Below are positions 22,517 to 29,557 of a stretch of DNA of 64,000 nt, piece by piece; positions within the stretch are counted from its first letter, which is position 1; every line of letters starts with the position of its first letter. The stretch is from a virus (Duplodnaviria > Caudoviricetes). The notes under the pieces were generated by a model. It saw only the letters and a list, made by a program, of their open reading frames with translations, had not been told where the DNA came from and searched no databases. The DNA lies in IMG/VR virus record IMGVR_UViG_2974629863_000001, positions 1-64,000 of that record; one strand, written 5' to 3'. The position numbers were made by a program, and so were the translations under genes.

Positions 22517-22752
22517 GACCAGTAGCTAACAAAAAGGCATTACAAAGACCAACACCCTTGCCGCCAGAACTTGTAATTCAACGAGCAGGTAAATATTGGT
22601 TTTATTCCTATATTAGATACGATAATCATAAATATAAAGGCTGGTATAAACTTGGTTATGAGCGAGCTTATAAAAAGGGACAGAAAGAGTTGAGGAAATT
22701 CAACGAAAGATTAAGTTATCTAAGAGAGGTTAGAGTATTTAATGCGGATTAA
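22513..22752 (+). CDS. basic hypothetical protein
   Basis: ATGA overlap. Confidence 0.6.
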   Translation: MRPVANKKALQRPTPLPPELVIQRAGKYWFYSYIRYDNHKYKGWYKLGYERAYKKGQKELRKFNERLSYLREVRVFNAD

Positions 22753-23737
22753 CATTAATTCAGCCGTGGAACTGGATTATACAGAAGTAGGGTTTGGTCA
22801 TGCGATCAGTAACATCTATCAGTCATTGGCTAATTTAGGTCATACTGTATCTGTAAATGACAAAACAGCACCACTACAGTTTCATTGGATGCAACCAGAT
22901 CTTTGTCAGCCAATCGGTCATGCCTACAATATTCTCTACTTTCCTTGGGAATCTACTAAGCTCAGAACAGCTTGGAAAGATATGTGTAATCGTCCTCTGT
23001 TGGATGAAATCTGGACAACAACACCTTGGTGCCGGGACATTCTGGTGGCCGAGGGTATAGAGAAAAAAGAGCCAATCAAAGTATTTCAACATGGCATTTC
23101 CTCTGAGTGGAGTCCGAAGTATAGAACACGTAGAGGTCCATTGAAGTTCCTTATCGTAGATGCAGAAGCTAATCGTAAAGGTTGGCAAGAAGCATTTGAT
23201 GCATTCAGAACTGTGTTTCAAGATGATCCTACTAAAGCCACATTGACAATTAAAACAAGACAACATAGCAGAGTACGATGGTTCGATGAGATGAATAGAG
23301 TTCATTCACCACAAGAACTAGCAAATGTAAATGTTGTTGTAGGTAGAATCTCTAATGAAGAGATGGTTCAGATGTATCAGAATCATGATGTATTCCTTGG
23401 ACCTAGTTATGGTGAAGGCTTCGGCTTTCTTCCGTTTCAGATGCTTGCAACTGGTGGACCTACAATCTGTACTAGAGAGTGGGCACCGTATGCTCACTAC
23501 CTGGGTGATCTAGCTCTCGATTCTACCTACGGCGAGACAAAATGGCAAGGGGAGCATCCTGGGCTAGTTTGCTACCCAGATCAGAGGCATTTAGAGGAAC
23601 TAATTAGGTTCGTGTACGATGACTTCGAGAACCAGGCAGATCAATTTTTCTCACGAAGCTTTGATCTACATGCTGAATATGACTGGAATAAGTTGACAAA
23701 AAATGCGTTCGAAAATGTCGTATCCCGCTTCGAGTGA
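22742..23737 (+). CDS. GT-B (family 4-like) glycosyltransferase
   Basis: NRKGW, PSYGEGFGFLPFQMLATGGPTI. Confidence 0.88.
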   Translation: MRININSAVELDYTEVGFGHAISNIYQSLANLGHTVSVNDKTAPLQFHWMQPDLCQPIGHAYNILYFPWESTKLRTAWKDMCNRPLLDEIWTTTPWCRDILVAEGIEKKEPIKVFQHGISSEWSPKYRTRRGPLKFLIVDAEANRKGWQEAFDAFRTVFQDDPTKATLTIKTRQHSRVRWFDEMNRVHSPQELANVNVVVGRISNEEMVQMYQNHDVFLGPSYGEGFGFLPFQMLATGGPTICTREWAPYAHYLGDLALDSTYGETKWQGEHPGLVCYPDQRHLEELIRFVYDDFENQADQFFSRSFDLHAEYDWNKLTKNAFENVVSRFE

Positions 23738-23809
23738 CCAGCGAGAACGCCAAAAGTCTGCTACAATAGATAAACCAAATAAAGAATAACAAGACCTGTA
23801 AAAGGTTGG

Positions 23810-23852
23810 TACTACACCATGTTTGGCAATATGCATGGTGTGGTATTTTTTT
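23810..23852 (+). terminator. terminator-like hairpin in the nrdB leader
   Basis: TACTACACCATG...CATGGTGTGGTA followed by T7; extended -10 TGCTACAAT at 23759. Confidence 0.6.
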
Positions 23853-23885
23853 AACCCTAAAACAGGAGAAAGAGGCGAAAAGTAA

Positions 23886-24866
23886 GTGATCGACACCACA
23901 AACACCAGGATTAGACAAGCTAAAGAAGCATATGTATTTGACTACCCTATCTTCGATGAACTAGCAGAGAAGCAACGTAGTATCTTTTGGACAGCTACAG
24001 AAATTGGCGTTGAAAATGACAAGCAAGATTTCCTTGTAAACGTCACAAAGGCAGAACGAGAAGCTGTAAAGACTACACTTAAGCTATTCACGATCTATGA
24101 ACTAATTCTTGGTGGTGAAATCTGGGGTGATCGACTCTTTAAGGCTTTCCCGCGTCCAGAAACACAGATGATGTGTAATGCATTTAGCTTCATGGAACTT
24201 AATGCACATGCACCATTCTATGCAAAGCTTAATCAGGCTCTTATGATTGATACTGAAGACTTCTATCTGTCATATAAGAATGATCCTGTTCTAGCAGAAA
24301 GAATTAAGTTCGTACATGAGGCGGTAGAAGATGAGGATCTTCTGTATGCCATTGCAGTATTCACACTAATGGAAAACTGTGTTCTATACAGTTCATTTGC
24401 TTTCCTAAAGCACTTTCAGAGTGAAGGAAAGAACCTACTAAAGAATGTAGTTGCTGGTATTAACTTCTCAGCTAAAGATGAGAATCTACATGCCACCGGA
24501 GCAAGTTTCCTATTTAGAACAACGCTGAATGAAGCGGAAGCAAGTGAGTCAGACAAGAAAGATCTATTCGATAAGATCAAAGAAGTAGCACGAAATATTT
24601 ATGAGCACGAATCAAGAATTATCGATATGTTATTTGAACATGGGGATATTGAAGGTATCTCTAAAGAAGATTTGAATGCTTTTGTTAAGTCCCGCGTGAA
24701 CCTAACACTAGAAAATCTTGACATCGATCCAATTTTTGAAGTTAATGACAACCCAATTGCAGATTGGTTCTACGCCGGTATCTCAGGAACACAGTTTCAC
24801 GACTTCTTCCAGGTCACCGGAAATGAATACAACCGAGATTGGAATGAAGAGGAGTTTACGTTTTAA
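23886..24866 (+). CDS. nrdB: ribonucleotide reductase class Ia beta subunit
   Basis: FWTATE, ELNAH...Y, DENLH, HDFF diiron/tyrosyl motifs. Confidence 0.93.
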   Translation: MIDTTNTRIRQAKEAYVFDYPIFDELAEKQRSIFWTATEIGVENDKQDFLVNVTKAEREAVKTTLKLFTIYELILGGEIWGDRLFKAFPRPETQMMCNAFSFMELNAHAPFYAKLNQALMIDTEDFYLSYKNDPVLAERIKFVHEAVEDEDLLYAIAVFTLMENCVLYSSFAFLKHFQSEGKNLLKNVVAGINFSAKDENLHATGASFLFRTTLNEAEASESDKKDLFDKIKEVARNIYEHESRIIDMLFEHGDIEGISKEDLNAFVKSRVNLTLENLDIDPIFEVNDNPIADWFYAGISGTQFHDFFQVTGNEYNRDWNEEEFTF

Positions 24867-26561
24867 ATGGGACAATTATGGGAAGAGTTTTCAAAAGAAA
24901 GAAAGGCTTTACAGGCGGCAGGAGAGATCCCTTCCTTTATGGAGACAGCAGGATACTCTATGTTTGTAAAGAAGTATATCGAGCCGGGACAGTCAGTGAA
25001 AGACCGTTACCAGAAGATAGCAAAGACGGCAGGAGCAATTGCCTCTGAGTTATACGGTGAAAACAATTGGGAAGCAGAGTTCTTCAATATTATCTGGAAG
25101 GGTTGGCTAAGTCCATCTACACCTATTCTTGCTAACCTAGGCACTAATAGAGGAATGTCTGTTAGTTGTGAAGGTAGTCATGTTGGAGATTCAGTCTTCG
25201 ATTTCTACGACACACTAAAAGAGGCAGCAGTTCTAAGTCAGAATGGCTTTGGCACTTCAGCGTACATGGGAGCTATTCGCCCAAGAGGATCTAAGTTCTC
25301 AGACAACGGCAAGGCTAATGGCGTAGTTCCGATCTTCGAGAACTTTGTGGAAATGACTAATCAGATTTCACAAGGATCAAATCGTCGTGGCTCATGGGCC
25401 GGGTATCTAGAAGTAGATCACGATGACTTCGATGAGCTATGCGATAAGCTAGAGAAGGAGCCAGCTAATCTTAATATTGGTTGGATTATCACAGATGCAT
25501 TCAAGGAAAAACTTCTAGCTGGTGACAAGGACTCTCTACGTCGCTATCAGAAGATGCTCAAGACTAAGATGGTCACAGGCAAGGGATATCTTTGGTTCGT
25601 AGATGATGTAAACCGTCAGCAGACTCTTCCTTATAAGTTAAATGGTCTTAAGAACAAGGCGTCAAACCTTTGCTCGGAGATTACGCTATTTTCAGACGAA
25701 GAGCATTCATATACATGTGTTCTTAGTTCTCTAAACTTGAATTACTATGACGACTGGAAAGACACTAACACAGTGTTCTTAGCTACAGTCTTTCTAGATT
25801 GTGTTGCAGAGGATTTTCTTCGAAAGGCTCGCAATGTTCCTGGATTAGAGCGTGCAGTTCGATACACTGAAAAGGCACGTAGTCTTGGTCTTGGTGTTAT
25901 GGGATATCATAGCTATCTACAGAAGAATAATATTGCCTGGAAAGATGCAGGAGAAATTAACCAAGAAATCTTTTTTGATATTAGTTTTCAAGCACGAAGC
26001 GCCTCTAGATACATGGCTAAGCTTGCCGGTTCGCCAGAATGGTGCGAGGGAACTGGACTAAGAAACACTCACCTACAGGCAATTGCACCAACAATGTCTA
26101 CTGCATTAATCGTCGGTGGTACAAGTCAGGGTATTGAACCGTATATCGGTAATATCTGGAATCAGACCAGCGCAGCAGGAGAAATGGCACGTATCAATCC
26201 TAACTTGCTTGCAATTATGAAAGATCGTGGAGTTTACAATCAGGATACTATTGACTTTGTTATTGAAGACAATGGATCAGTACAGAATGTAGATTGGCTA
26301 GATGATCATGAAAAGGAAGTCTTTAAGACAGCCTATGAAATTGATCAGGAACTAATCGTTAAGCACGCTTCAGAGCGACAGCCTTATATCGATCAGGGAC
26401 AATCACTAAATCTACATTTTGACAACACACCACCTGGCGAAATATCCAGGATTCACAAAATAGCCATGTTAGACCCGAACATCAAAGGACTTTATTACCT
26501 AAGGTCACGAGCAGGAGCAAAGGGAAGCAATGGCAAGTCAGTAAGAAAGGAGACTTCATAA
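24867..26561 (+). CDS. nrdA: ribonucleotide reductase class Ia alpha subunit lacking the C-terminal cysteine pair
   Basis: SPSTP, VSC, SNLCSEI, APTMST, LYYLRS; no ATP cone; no Cys after YYLRS. Confidence 0.93.
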   Translation: MGQLWEEFSKERKALQAAGEIPSFMETAGYSMFVKKYIEPGQSVKDRYQKIAKTAGAIASELYGENNWEAEFFNIIWKGWLSPSTPILANLGTNRGMSVSCEGSHVGDSVFDFYDTLKEAAVLSQNGFGTSAYMGAIRPRGSKFSDNGKANGVVPIFENFVEMTNQISQGSNRRGSWAGYLEVDHDDFDELCDKLEKEPANLNIGWIITDAFKEKLLAGDKDSLRRYQKMLKTKMVTGKGYLWFVDDVNRQQTLPYKLNGLKNKASNLCSEITLFSDEEHSYTCVLSSLNLNYYDDWKDTNTVFLATVFLDCVAEDFLRKARNVPGLERAVRYTEKARSLGLGVMGYHSYLQKNNIAWKDAGEINQEIFFDISFQARSASRYMAKLAGSPEWCEGTGLRNTHLQAIAPTMSTALIVGGTSQGIEPYIGNIWNQTSAAGEMARINPNLLAIMKDRGVYNQDTIDFVIEDNGSVQNVDWLDDHEKEVFKTAYEIDQELIVKHASERQPYIDQGQSLNLHFDNTPPGEISRIHKIAMLDPNIKGLYYLRSRAGAKGSNGKSVRKETS

Positions 26562-26654
26562 ATGGATCTAGACAATCTTGAATTTGATTTTGATGAAGAT
26601 GCCGTTGCATGTGCAATCGCTAATGGCGATGACTGCACAGTGTGCGAGGGTTAA
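26562..26654 (+). CDS. 30-aa free-standing NrdA C-terminal redox-tail peptide (not in ORF track)
   Basis: MDLDNLEFDFDEDAVACAIANGDDCTVCEG; in frame directly after the nrdA TAA; AAGGAG SD; lies before the terminator. Confidence 0.8.
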   Translation: MDLDNLEFDFDEDAVACAIANGDDCTVCEG

Positions 26655-26670
26655 ATAAATAGAAAACATG

Positions 26671-26705
26671 ACTAGCCACCTTCCCTAGATGGGACGGTGG
26701 CTAGT
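26671..26705 (+). terminator. hairpin ending the nrd operon
   Basis: ACTAGCCACC...GGTGGCTAGT. Confidence 0.7.
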
Positions 26706-26728
26706 TCTATATGTGTTAAAATAAATAT

Positions 26729-27547
26729 ATGACATTCAACGAGAACGCAAAGCCTAAGAAAAAAAGAGTTATCTGGAAGCGCGCATTAATTGCAGCAGCA
26801 GTTGTTATCGGTGTAGGAGTCCCGGCAACGCTAGAACTAAACAACGACTCAGTAGAAACATGTACGGTGGAGCAAGCCAATACAAGTACAGATTGCAGAA
26901 TTGAATTTACTGCATCAAGTCTAGATACTGTATGGTCACAGGTTCTCAAAGAAAATACCGGAGTTGCTTACACGTCTCCGACAGTAACAGTATTCGACGG
27001 ATCGGTAAGCACAGCTTGCGGAACAGGAACTACCAAAAATGGTGCTTTCTATTGTTCATATGATCAAACTGTTTATATCGATACCAAGTTCTTCGATCAA
27101 CTCACACAATGGGGATCTTCAGTTGGTCCACTAGCTCAGGAATATGTATTAGCTCACGAGTTCGGCCACCACATTCAGAATCAGCTAGGAGTTCTTCAGC
27201 GAGGATTCTCAAATAGTCGTGGTGATGGATCTATGCCAGTTAGAACAGAACTACAGGCAGATTGTTATGCAGGAGTCTGGGCTACTAAATCAGATGAGGT
27301 AAATACCGAGTCAGGGGCACCGGGAGTTAACCAGATTTCCCCACAGCAGCTCACAGACGCTCTCACGGCGGCAGAGGCAGTAGGAGATGACAATATCCAA
27401 ACGCACAGGGGAGAACAAGTGAATGCACAGAAATGGGCACATGGTTCTTCTGAGCAACGACAAGCTTGGTTCTTAAGAGGATATACTTCAGGCAATATGA
27501 ATCAGTGTGATACATATAACATTGAGGACATCAATATACCAAAGTAG
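26729..27547 (+). CDS. neutral zinc metallopeptidase (YpfJ-like), membrane-anchored
   Basis: AFYC, AHEFGHH, ELQADCYAG, HGSSEQR. Confidence 0.88.
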   Translation: MTFNENAKPKKKRVIWKRALIAAAVVIGVGVPATLELNNDSVETCTVEQANTSTDCRIEFTASSLDTVWSQVLKENTGVAYTSPTVTVFDGSVSTACGTGTTKNGAFYCSYDQTVYIDTKFFDQLTQWGSSVGPLAQEYVLAHEFGHHIQNQLGVLQRGFSNSRGDGSMPVRTELQADCYAGVWATKSDEVNTESGAPGVNQISPQQLTDALTAAEAVGDDNIQTHRGEQVNAQKWAHGSSEQRQAWFLRGYTSGNMNQCDTYNIEDINIPK

Positions 27548-27566
27548 TAGTGTATAATTATTTCTT

Positions 27567-28139
27567 ATGGAAAATGAATCAGCAGCATCGAGATTTACGC
27601 GCAAATGGACCAGTATTAGAGATGATCGTAAGGTTCGTGGTTGGGATAGTAGACCAGCAGAAAGAAAAGATCGAGAGTTTGTTGACTCGACACCAGCAGT
27701 AGAACCAAGTGAAAGAGTAGCTTGGTCAGGATCTATGATAGTAAAACCATACGGATCTACAGTAGATCTTCCACTCATTACAGAAAATGTAAGTGGGTAT
27801 GACTTTGGAATCTTTAGTCCATTTATCTCTGTACCAGATTTGACACTAACAAATTGTTCCGTTCCGGGAATCATGCCACCTTATGCAACAGAAGAGCCAA
27901 CTAAGGCATATGTAGCAACACTTGTCAATTGCACAATTACAGGATTCTCGCTTTACGGTTGCACAGTAATTAACGGAAACTTTACAGAAGTAAATGCAAT
28001 TCTAAAGAATCTACATGACACTCAGCCAGAGATGTATACAAAGGATCTTGTCAAATCTCAACTAAACTCTATTCGTGAATTCCAAATGATAGAGGTTGGC
28101 GGTAACTTCTTAACTGAAGCAGATGTAGACTCCTGGTAA
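27567..28139 (+). CDS. hypothetical protein; N-terminus shared with 29579..29758
   Basis: RFTRKW...RKVRGWDSRPAER. Confidence 0.7.
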   Translation: MENESAASRFTRKWTSIRDDRKVRGWDSRPAERKDREFVDSTPAVEPSERVAWSGSMIVKPYGSTVDLPLITENVSGYDFGIFSPFISVPDLTLTNCSVPGIMPPYATEEPTKAYVATLVNCTITGFSLYGCTVINGNFTEVNAILKNLHDTQPEMYTKDLVKSQLNSIREFQMIEVGGNFLTEADVDSW

Positions 28140-28156
28140 TATGTTAGAATTGCTAT

Positions 28157-29557
28157 ATGTCTTATATAGAAATTTGGTCACCAAATAAAAATTCAGGTAC
28201 AGGTGGATTCAAGAAATCTATTATTGTTATCCACACGTCGGAACCAGGTCCGTATGCACCTGGTAGAAATCCAGGAACCGCAGCTAATCTAGGTAGATAC
28301 CTACAGAGCGCGAGCGTACAAGCAAGTTACCATATGATCGTTGATCCTAATGGTGATAAATGCAGATGCCTATCTAATGCAGATAGAGCTTGGGCAGCAG
28401 GCCCGATTGCTAATAATGAAGGATTCCATATCTGTGCAGTAGGTTGGGCAGCGTGGTCACGTCAAGAGTGGCTATCTATGCCTAAGATGCTAGACGGAAT
28501 GGCAGAAGAAATTGCTCTATGGTGTAAGGCAGAAGGAATCCCAGCACAATATGTTGTGGCTAAGGATCTGCCTAATGACATCTGGGGTATTACAACTCAT
28601 CTTCAGACAGCATTAGCTTGGAGACAAACAGATCATAGTGATCCAGGTCCAAACTTCCCGATTGATGTTTTGATTGAAAAGGTTAAAGCATATATGGGTG
28701 GAAGTGTTATTGCACCTGTTGAAAAGGAAACAGCTATTCAGGCTAAGCGCAGAATTGCAGATTGGCTGGGTAAGCGTGTTATTGATGCAGAGGAATTCCC
28801 AACGCCAGACGGTATCGGTAGATTCTGTGATTACGAAAACGGAATGATCTACTGGACACCAGCAACAGGCGCACAGGCAATGTCTAATGAAATGGTCGAT
28901 AAGTACGCAACAGTTGGCTACGAAAAGAGTTTCCTTGGATACCCTATCAATGACGTACACGATCTGCCAGATAAGGCCGGAAGAGCGCAAGCGTTCCAGA
29001 ATGGATCTATCTATTGGTCTGAGAAAACAAAAGCTCAGATTGTAAACGGAGTTATTGGAAACAAATGGGCTGCATCAGGTTGGGAAAAGGGAGAGCTAGG
29101 ATTCCCAACAACAGATGAAATCAAACTGCCAGACGGTGTAGGTATTATTCAGGTATTCGAAAAAGCACATATCTACTACACACCAGCAAGTGGAGCAGGA
29201 ATCATCAAGGGTCTTATTTGGGACGAGTTCACTAAGCAGAACTTCGAAAAGGGCTTAGGATATCCTCTTACAGATGAGATTGCTACTGCAAATAACTCAG
29301 GTGTATTCCAGAAGTTTGATTTTGCTCAGGTCTACTACAAGTGGGGAGATGCTAGAGCCTACTCTATCTTCAACGACATTCTAGATATTTATGCTAGATT
29401 CGGATACGAGACAGGTCGTCTAGGATACCCAACTTCTAATAGAACTCTAGTGGAAAAAACGAAGTGGCTTCAGAAATTCCAGGGTGGATCTATTCAAGTA
29501 GACACTAGTACTAAAGAAGTAGTACTAATTATTGAAGGAGAGTCCATTTCTGTATAA
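28157..29557 (+). CDS. endolysin: amidase-2 domain plus LGFP repeats
   Basis: VIHTSE, ASYH, HSDPGPNFP; repeated LGYP/LGFP motifs. Confidence 0.92.
   Translation: MSYIEIWSPNKNSGTGGFKKSIIVIHTSEPGPYAPGRNPGTAANLGRYLQSASVQASYHMIVDPNGDKCRCLSNADRAWAAGPIANNEGFHICAVGWAAWSRQEWLSMPKMLDGMAEEIALWCKAEGIPAQYVVAKDLPNDIWGITTHLQTALAWRQTDHSDPGPNFPIDVLIEKVKAYMGGSVIAPVEKETAIQAKRRIADWLGKRVIDAEEFPTPDGIGRFCDYENGMIYWTPATGAQAMSNEMVDKYATVGYEKSFLGYPINDVHDLPDKAGRAQAFQNGSIYWSEKTKAQIVNGVIGNKWAASGWEKGELGFPTTDEIKLPDGVGIIQVFEKAHIYYTPASGAGIIKGLIWDEFTKQNFEKGLGYPLTDEIATANNSGVFQKFDFAQVYYKWGDARAYSIFNDILDIYARFGYETGRLGYPTSNRTLVEKTKWLQKFQGGSIQVDTSTKEVVLIIEGESISV

Follow-up and report, generated by a model that had tools for sequence, protein, structure and literature searches.

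Organization of the nrdB–nrdA locus

According to the RNR literature cited here, class I and class II enzymes have their C-terminal cysteine tail on the catalytic subunit itself. The tail, which has been described as disordered (PMC9669993), passes electrons to the active-site disulfide and is in turn recharged by a redoxin (PMC9669993, PMC4520616). The locus analysed here raises the question of where this tail has gone when nrdA ends without it and a 30-residue open reading frame carrying a C-x-x-C pair follows immediately. The window, a 64,000-nucleotide stretch of DNA from a Rhodococcus phage, contains the following features.

23886..24866, plus strand: nrdB, radical-generating beta subunit, 326 aa, class Id-like
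24867..26561, plus strand: nrdA, catalytic alpha subunit, 564 aa, without ATP-cone and without C-terminal Cys pair
26547..26552, plus strand: AAGGAG Shine-Dalgarno motif of the micro-ORF, within the last nrdA codons, with the ATG 9 nt downstream
26562..26654, plus strand: micro-ORF, 30 aa plus stop, putative detached NrdA redox tail
26671..26705, plus strand: strong stem-loop at the 3' end of the nrdB–nrdA–micro-ORF unit

The layout described in the original prediction was recovered in full. NrdA ends in LYYLRS plus 17 residues, with no Cys past the YY motif; its TAA (26559–26561) immediately adjoins the ATG of the micro-ORF (26562–26564) in the same frame, and the micro-ORF has its own Shine-Dalgarno motif. 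The same TAAATG stop–start arrangement forms the nrdB/nrdA junction. The operon terminator that had been placed downstream would correspond to the stem-loop, which folds at −28.9 kcal/mol (z = −7.1), a value equalled by 0 of 200 shuffled sequences. Although a simple terminator scan did not call it, owing to its long loop and weak T-run, the hairpin is likely the terminator of the three-gene unit, and the alignment placed a hairpin at the equivalent position in phages Peregrin, Grayson, Trina and NiceHouse. A thioredoxin-like C-G-P-C protein of 87 aa is encoded elsewhere in the phage genome.

Class assignment and catalytic residues

NrdA matched the Pfam families of the RNR barrel (PF02867, 2.5e-77) and the all-alpha N-terminal domain (PF00317, 2.9e-07), and its closest solved structures were the class Id alpha subunits 6DQX and 6DQW (E ~1e-108). 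Against the NCBIfam equivalog TIGR02510 ("NrdE-prime") it scored 584.3 bits, short of the 602.25 cut-off, a shortfall that may partly come from the missing tail. The protein has the minimal architecture of NrdAi, with 564 aa, no ATP-cone and a beta–alpha gene order; NrdAi proteins have a median length of 564 aa and the same usual order (Burnim et al.). NrdB matched PF00268 (1.3e-45), was closest to the class Id beta subunits 6SF4, 5OLK and 6CWO, and has a normal acidic/aromatic C-terminal tail. The enzyme is a class Id-like RNR (NrdAi), and the sequence similarity of NrdB to class Id beta subunits makes an Mn2(IV/III) cofactor a candidate for it.

Across 66 sequences, C101, N267, C269, E271, C284, Y543 and Y544 of NrdA were invariant or nearly so, the N267-x-C269-x-E271 motif and the Y543–Y544 pair being intact. 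We take C101 and C284, from established knowledge rather than a structural alignment, to be the equivalents of E. coli C225 and C462. No catalytic Cys, Asn, Glu or Tyr has been lost, and a dithiol reductant is therefore still needed. After the YY motif, the polypeptide continues only as a short basic stub, and no Cys follows this motif in the NrdA of the window or in any of the 87 members of its clade. A search for hints of a docking site found eight clade-specific NrdA positions (144, 146, 147, 151, 172, 281, 289 and 416).

Sequence features of the micro-ORF peptide

The peptide ends in C-T-V-C-E-G, with C25 and C28 forming the C-x-x-C pair and a third cysteine, C17, lying 8 residues upstream. 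Its N-terminal half is acidic-aromatic, its C-terminal half reads C-A-I-x-N-G-x-x-C-x-x-C-E-G, and it lacks both Lys and Arg. When 15 peptides were aligned, the final Cys was invariant, the two upstream Cys were at least 90% conserved, and the terminal C-x-x-C-E-G was the most conserved part. The acidic-aromatic motif was also conserved, as D-x-L-x-W/F-D-x-W/F (D-x-L-x-W-D-D-W in one form). It lies 13–16 residues (median 14) before the C-x-x-C pair in 36 peptides, and the YY motif of fused relatives lies 14–15 residues from theirs in 32 proteins; this equal spacing may be coincidence. A simple two-Cys shuttle does not explain C17 and its I-E-N-G motif, which might instead serve to bind metal or have some other role, and this part of the motif is missing from the fused sister clade.

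Searches of Pfam and NCBIfam returned no family for the peptide, and the ESM Atlas gave only unnamed clusters, all below 0.9. A short product with an acidic, leader-like N-terminus, a Cys-rich C-terminus and no Pfam or NCBIfam family could also be an unrelated small peptide that happens to lie behind nrdA, such as a RiPP precursor. No conserved modifying enzyme adjoins it, however; it is preceded by nrdA and followed by lysin genes or others with no relation to it. Its strict linkage to tail-less NrdA and an ending identical to that of fused RNR tails likewise speak against such an origin, which we regard as extremely improbable.

Conservation of the split in phages and actinobacteria

The relatives examined comprised phages Peregrin, Grayson, Trina and NiceHouse, nine metagenomic contigs, and Nocardioides, Marmoricola and Phycicoccus genomes. 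A micro-ORF was present at 15 of 15 loci encoding a tail-less NrdA, and a GGAG-type motif stood at the matching position in most of the other loci when the upstream 20 nt were inspected. Conservation of the stop and ribosome-binding site in relatives, proposed as a check in the original prediction, was thus largely borne out. The arrangement had been treated there as a peculiarity of one phage; it instead marks a whole clade of phages and actinobacteria. Across this clade the peptides are 26–45 residues long.

Spacing between the two genes varied from −4 to +136 nt, and all three relative frames occurred. In Peregrin and Grayson the two genes overlap by 1 nt (TAATG), so that the micro-ORF is in a different frame from nrdA; NiceHouse has TAA, 3 nt and then ATG, and Trina has a 22-nt spacer with a second stop. 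In the four cellular actinobacterial genomes the gap to the ATG was 4–47 nt. Nine more phage-like loci (L049–L057) extended the range, most of them with GGAG upstream. The L055 peptide, in which the script found no C-x-x-C, ends in C-x-x-x-C-E-G when read by hand. At least one of the micro-ORFs, Trina gp060, has been annotated in the wrong frame.

These junctions bear directly on whether the TAA is read through, or otherwise recoded, to give a normal fused NrdA, the separate ORF being only apparent. The micro-ORF does share the nrdA frame in the window, NiceHouse, L049, L051, L054 and L039. In Peregrin, Grayson, Trina, L037, L038, L040, L050, L052, L053, L056 and L057, however, it is out of frame with nrdA, is cut off from it by more than one stop, or starts 136 nt further on. 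Since all three frames are used, no single frame-preserving readthrough restores the fusion; each locus has its own start codon, most have GGAG, and no single recoding rule fits them all. Readthrough is accordingly very unlikely.

A tblastn search of phages with the 30-aa peptide returned only Grayson and Peregrin, at E ~1–2, because the query was too short and was partly filtered; a profile search was therefore used. The profile gave exactly one match per genome in three actinobacterial genomes, with 61–66 bits and E ~1e-16 to 1e-17. These scores, together with a micro-ORF behind every tail-less NrdA examined, are far beyond chance. In a phylum sample, 2 of 401 genomes matched, namely the centre genome itself and L046, which has a fused tail; in a family sample the single match among 301 genomes was the centre genome itself. 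The micro-ORF thus appears sporadic in the cellular genomes sampled, which do not prove its absence elsewhere.

Evidence for a separately translated gene

A comparison of the window micro-ORF with that of Peregrin gave 14.2 synonymous differences over 16.3 sites and 5.8 non-synonymous differences over 70.7 sites. Synonymous sites are saturated and dN is ~0.09; the micro-ORF is under purifying selection. In three independent environmental assemblies (DNA runs), contigs crossed the TAA–ATG junction unchanged. All six SNPs within the micro-ORF (6/6) were third-position and synonymous, as judged by reading the codons by hand.

The TAA could in principle have arisen by a single-base change, whether through faulty sequencing or assembly or through a recent mutation that inactivated the tail and left it pseudogenised. 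The stop at 26559–26561 had been singled out for checking in this regard. Contigs from three independent studies carry the identical TAA–ATG, the split is common to more than 14 diverged loci and to 87 NrdA sequences of one clade, and the micro-ORF is under selection; the probability we give to an error or pseudogene is vanishingly small, and the comparative data refute it. The original prediction, that this is a real separate gene rather than a point error, holds on the same evidence of 15 split loci, a single clade and purifying selection. We conclude that 26562–26654 is probably a genuine gene, translated on its own, which encodes the C-terminal redox tail of a class I (Id-like, NrdAi) alpha subunit.

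Origin of the peptide from a fused tail

None of the ~85 closest NrdA homologues (59–93% identity) has a Cys after the YY motif. The next clade has a fused end, S-K-D-E-C-x-x-C-E-G, with the same terminal motif as the peptide, and the tail is fused in all 31 of the more distant viral homologues. In a maximum-likelihood tree the 87 tail-less NrdA rows formed a single clade (SH-aLRT 100) nested among fused-tail relatives. Tail loss mapped to one change, a result that none of 500 shuffles matched. The three-Cys motif C-x-I-E-N-G-x-x-C-x-x-C was also found as the fused end of other, longer NrdAs, L046 and L047, whose tails read C-S-I-E-N-G-P-D-C-x-x-C.

Homology of the peptide to fused class I tails is supported by these alignments. 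By tree and alignment, an ancestral nrdA with a fused C-x-x-C-E-G tail is shown to have split once, and the putative tail gene has since been kept, with its own ribosome-binding site, beside a tail-less, otherwise intact nrdA. The split arrangement, as identified from sequence, is found in large actinobacteriophages and in some Nocardioidaceae/Intrasporangiaceae-type genomes. The idea that the alpha redox tail had become a separate gene, put forward from the window alone, fits both the single tail-less clade and the homology to fused tails.

Proposed function of the detached tail

After each turnover, the C101–C284 active-site disulfide of NrdA would be reduced by the C25/C28 pair of the peptide, and the oxidised peptide would then be re-reduced by a thioredoxin-type protein. 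Candidate reductants include the 87-aa C-G-P-C protein of the phage and host redoxins. A free 30-mer would not have the high local concentration that a tether provides, so that efficient turnover would be expected to need docking affinity. The D-x-L-x-W/F-D-x-W/F motif probably docks the peptide on NrdA, making it a small non-covalent subunit and not a free solute. In taking the peptide to be diffusible and its reductant coupling to be separately tunable, the original prediction went further than the sequence evidence; the conserved acidic-aromatic N-terminus points more to a docked subunit than to a free cofactor. No redoxin gene conserved downstream of the micro-ORF was recognised in the four cellular loci, in which spurious ORFs are many because of high G+C, and a 119-aa Cys-rich ORF after the L037 peptide had no Pfam match.

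A conserved, tail-derived gene might nevertheless have a main job other than electron shuttling. It could encode an Sml1-like regulator or competitive inhibitor, a three-Cys metal-binding or assembly factor, or a redoxin-recruiting adaptor, the NrdA disulfide being reduced directly by thioredoxin, mycoredoxin or a small thiol. The peptide has three conserved Cys, not two, and its acidic-aromatic N-terminus loosely resembles the alpha-binding C-terminal tail of NrdB, so that competition for alpha would be possible. Class II enzymes without C-terminal Cys, moreover, may use small-molecule reductants directly (Burnim et al.). Against this, the most conserved part of the peptide, C-x-x-C-E-G, exactly matches the end of the sister clade's fused tail. 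In addition, the peptide is present wherever NrdA lacks its own tail and, in our sample, only there, as would be expected of a replacement for the lost part more than of a new function. A non-shuttle role is on balance unlikely.

A more far-reaching reading, to which we give moderate confidence, is a three-chain class I RNR. A 26–45-residue peptide would dock non-covalently on alpha through a W-D-D-W-type motif and act as a dedicated, exchangeable dithiol carrier from thioredoxin to the active site. Such an arrangement would have arisen once, been kept over deep divergence, and be common to phages and actinobacterial chromosomes.

Comparison with known RNR systems

The E. coli NrdA tail carries C754/C759, and the eukaryotic R1 tail a CX2C motif. 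The peptide shares its terminal motif with the covalent tails of its nearest fused relatives and its three-Cys motif with those of other NrdAs; peptide and covalent tail are both acidic, match no family and have the same presumed role. Unlike the covalent tail, the peptide lies off the alpha chain, with its own start codon and ribosome-binding site, and the conserved acidic-aromatic motif at its N-terminus is an addition not seen in fused tails.

The closest precedent, by analogy, is the split class II enzyme NrdJa/NrdJb of Pseudomonas aeruginosa and other Proteobacteria (Crona et al. 2015, PMC4520616). There, the redox Cys that serve NrdJa reside on NrdJb, which mediates efficient reductive dithiol exchange, and both proteins are needed in vivo (PMC4520616). 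In both systems the catalytic chain has no redox Cys of its own, and these come, or here would come, from a second product of the operon. NrdJa/NrdJb is a B12-dependent class II enzyme, whereas the present one is class I (Id-like), with nrdB directly upstream and class I (Id) enzymes as its closest structures. The detached part also differs from NrdJb in being a peptide of 26–45 residues (30 aa in the window) with no recognisable domain and no Pfam or NCBIfam match. The phage/actinobacterial split is independent in origin from NrdJa/NrdJb.

Two other rearrangements are comparable. The class I NrdA of Aeromonas phage Aeh1 (Crona et al. 2011, PMC3045599) is made in two pieces that must reassemble, its body being cut by a homing-endonuclease insertion into two large halves; in the present case the break separates just the flexible tail and is free of mobile elements. 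In the class Id RNR of Facklamia ignava (Rozman Grinberg et al. 2018, PMC6187632), a glutaredoxin is fused to NrdB. This too rearranges the reductant pathway within the same subclass (NrdAi/NrdBi), but it is the opposite move, a redoxin being fused onto the enzyme there and the enzyme's own tail being detached here. No published detached redox tail was found in the literature for a class I (oxygen-dependent) RNR.

Implications

The findings point to a whole class I clade, spanning phages and free-living actinobacteria, in which the tail would be a separate micro-protein. For annotation, this means that tail-less NrdAs are not to be considered defective, and that "hypothetical" ORFs of 30–45 aa gain a likely function. 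A tail peptide that can be synthesised would provide a clean system for asking by what route the tail gets to the active site and from which redoxin it is recharged; if the tail is indeed a free peptide, its entry into the active site could be captured for direct study. For small-protein biology, the locus would clearly exemplify how gene fission can give rise to a functional micro-protein.

Organization of the nrdB–nrdA–micro-ORF region

The virus record is 134,973 bp long and bears direct terminal repeats; the window covers its left 64 kb. In GenBank, the Rhodococcus phages Grayson (NrdA 98% identical) and Peregrin (93%), of the genus Weaselvirus, are closest to it, followed by Trina (64%) and NiceHouse (61%), of Trinavirus. 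The genes and signals considered here are as follows.

23886–24866, + strand: nrdB, radical subunit gene, joined to nrdA by TAAATG
24867–26561, + strand: nrdA, 564 aa
26547–26552, + strand: AAGGAG, Shine–Dalgarno-type, 9 nt upstream of the micro-ORF ATG
26559–26561, + strand: TAA stop of nrdA
26562–26654, + strand: micro-ORF, 30 codons, its ATG directly after the nrdA stop and in the same frame
26671–26705: strong stem-loop downstream of the micro-ORF (−28.9 kcal/mol, z = −7.1)

NrdA ends approximately 20 residues past the conserved YY motif, and that stretch contains no cysteine. The micro-ORF product carries C-x-x-C-E-G at its C terminus and a third cysteine eight residues ahead of the pair. 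All elements of the original prediction (tail-less NrdA, TAA–ATG junction, AAGGAG, micro-ORF, and hairpin) were present in the window, as was the TAAATG that it had noted between nrdB and nrdA.

RNR barrel and N-terminal domains were detected in NrdA. The closest solved structures were class Id α subunits for NrdA (6DQX and 6DQW) and class Id β subunits for NrdB (6SF4, 5OLK, and 6CWO); the NCBIfam NrdE-prime score of NrdA was 584 bits against a cut-off of 602. Length (564 aa), lack of an ATP-cone, and β–α gene order agree with the NrdAi clade of Burnim et al. Given the invariance of the catalytic cysteines, Asn, and Glu and of the YY pair in the alignment, NrdA is intact, and its active-site disulfide still forms and needs reduction in every cycle.

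The gene order from glycosyltransferase to lysin A around nrdB, nrdA, and the peptide is kept in many phage-like metagenomic contigs; the window (22742–29557) and contigs L051, L052, L055, and L056 have in common glycosyltransferase, (small ORF or HNH), nrdB, nrdA, tail peptide, and lysin A. Between peptide and lysin A, the window, Peregrin, and Grayson carry a PF04228 zinc metallopeptidase-family gene (26729–27547) and a 190-aa ORF. Sequence varies in the terminator region, with conserved coding sequence on either side: in one environmental strain (run X6), 80 other letters replace the 73 nt from the micro-ORF stop to the next gene (26655–26727), and Grayson likewise has an insertion between micro-ORF and next gene.

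Conservation of the separate reading frame

A sequencing error at the nrdA stop was addressed using independent assemblies. The junction (26556–26571) was unchanged in contigs from three independent DNA studies, with TAA–ATG and no sense codon at 26559. Within the micro-ORF these contigs differed at six positions (26591, 26600, 26603, 26609, 26618, and 26621), all of them third positions and synonymous in the micro-ORF frame when codons were read by hand. Comparison of the micro-ORF in the window with that of Peregrin gave a dN of 0.09, with saturation at synonymous sites (14.2 differences across 16.3 sites). The peptide is encoded by a separate gene under purifying selection.

Conservation of the stop and ribosome-binding site in related phages, proposed as a check in the original prediction, was borne out: a small ORF follows nrdA in all four GenBank relatives, and GGAG precedes the peptide ORF in most of 15 loci. 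The junctions themselves differ. Peregrin and Grayson have a 1-nt overlap (TAATG), which places the micro-ORF in another frame; NiceHouse has TAA, 3 nt, and ATG; and Trina has a 22-nt spacer with a second stop inside. In Trina (NC_042040.1), the annotated gp060 (YP_009615079.1, L003:3362–3451) is in the wrong frame; the true tail peptide (28 aa, with C-x-x-C-E-G at its end) is read in a different frame, from a start 4 nt upstream (L003:3358–3444, NC_042040.1 ∼26719–26805).

Four actinobacterial genomes (Nocardioides sp. YR527, N. bruguierae, a Marmoricola MAG, and Phycicoccus avicenniae) also encode a tail-less NrdA followed by an ORF of 37–43 aa, with its ATG 4–47 nt downstream in various frames. 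Nine more phage-like loci have the same pairing: viral contig L049 and eight contigs with diverse NrdAs (L050–L057). The L055 peptide, in which the script found no C-x-x-C, was read by hand and ends in C-x-x-x-C-E-G; in L053, nrdA and the downstream peptide ORF are 136 nt apart, with an extra 45-aa ORF in between. Joining of NrdA and peptide by readthrough or frameshifting, and an assembly error as the origin of the split, were both rejected, because over 15 loci the gap ranges from −4 to +136 nt with all three relative frames represented; these arrangements cannot all be explained by one rule of frame-preserving readthrough or frameshifting, and an error cannot be common to so many loci.

Several of these loci hold further ORFs. 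Those of 76, 45, 218, and 40 aa (L053:2774–3004, L053:4758–4895, L056:2348–3004, and L054:2895–3017) occupy either the nrdB–nrdA interval or the one from nrdA to the tail peptide, with no Pfam match on record. In Nocardioides sp. YR527, a Cys-rich 119-aa ORF (L037:5831–6190) starts 12 nt past the tail peptide, with C-x-x-C-C-C close to its N terminus and C-x-x-x-C further on; it had no Pfam match and no recognized counterpart in the other three cellular loci. The longest NrdB frame there (L037:2706–3983, 425 aa) has ∼100 residues before the Pfam domain, a part without any family match, which may reflect either a start codon called too far upstream in high-G+C DNA or an N-terminal extension.

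Distribution and origin of the detached tail

The best 120 NrdA homologues from 5.8 billion proteins were compared. Every one of the ∼85 closest (59–93% identity) terminates in a short, basic, cysteine-free stub, whereas the next group ends in S-K-D-E-C-x-x-C-E-G; more distant viral homologues (35–52% identity) were fused in 31 of 31 cases. A maximum-likelihood tree of 124 sequences places the 87 tail-less rows in a single clade (SH-aLRT 100), for which one change of tail state is enough; 0 of 500 label shuffles did equally well. This clade is nested among fused ones, and the tail is fused in five distant outgroups as well; one fission event in an ancestor with a fused tail is the simplest reading of the tree. 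Cellular tail-less NrdAs fall in a 53-row subclade with many metagenome rows, nested among phage-like contig rows. Eight NrdA positions distinguish the tail-less clade from 32 fused relatives, four of them in one loop (F144, D146, N147, and N151); at position 416, Val is present in 99% of tail-less sequences and Cys in 32 of 32 fused ones.

A peptide profile searched against 1.84 billion proteins returned 26 representatives at E ≤ 0.001, ∼20 of them free-standing proteins of 29–52 aa with the identical motif; public records annotate the representatives as "hypothetical protein" throughout. The tail peptide is rare among sampled actinobacterial genomes, with 2 matches in a phylum-level sample of 401 and 1 in a family-level sample of 301, each count including the centre genome.

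The last six residues of the peptide are those of the fused tail in the sister clade. Its C-terminal half, C-x-I-E-N-G-x-x-C-x-x-C, is also present in fused form at the C terminus of longer NrdAs, one from an actinobacterial genome (L046) and one viral, of 787 aa (L047); eukaryotic R1 tails carry a similar motif. Because, in the loci sampled, the peptide occurs wherever NrdA lacks a tail and nowhere else, it is homologous to the missing tail and complements that part. With the split kept over 15 loci, a single tail-less clade, and the sister-clade match, the separate RNR tail gene originally proposed is supported, and we are nearly certain that the micro-ORF is a real gene and constitutes the detached tail.

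Proposed mechanism

No description of a class I RNR tail as a separate gene was found in the open-access text searched. Functionally, the closest known counterpart is NrdJa/NrdJb of P. aeruginosa, in which NrdJb (229 aa) provides redox cysteines for NrdJa; neither part is dispensable, and with DTT NrdJa by itself is only poorly active (PMC4520616). That enzyme, however, is class II, and NrdJb is a folded multi-domain protein. In Aeromonas phage Aeh1, a mobile endonuclease interrupts the body of NrdA (PMC3045599).

The phage NrdA lacks a dithiol of its own yet retains the active-site pair. Peptide residues C25 and C28 would reduce the C101–C284 disulfide of NrdA, and the oxidized peptide would be recharged by a thioredoxin-type protein. 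No glutaredoxin-family match was found in the whole phage genome. An 87-aa thioredoxin-like protein with C-G-P-C (PF00085, 26 bits), encoded beyond the window at ∼96.5 kb (G000:C1 ∼96507–96770 of the whole genome record; L036:1468–1731), is a candidate reductant of the peptide.

The N-terminal half probably docks the peptide on NrdA. This half carries D-x-L-x-W/F-D-x-W/F and nearly no Lys or Arg; the peptide is acidic and the residual NrdA stub basic. The distance from the last aromatic of the motif to C-x-x-C (median 14, mostly 13–16, in 36 peptides) is close to that from YY to C-x-x-C in 32 fused relatives (14–15), a spacing that would fit an anchor near the exit of the α chain from the barrel. 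A docked redox shuttle is probably the best explanation for the peptide.
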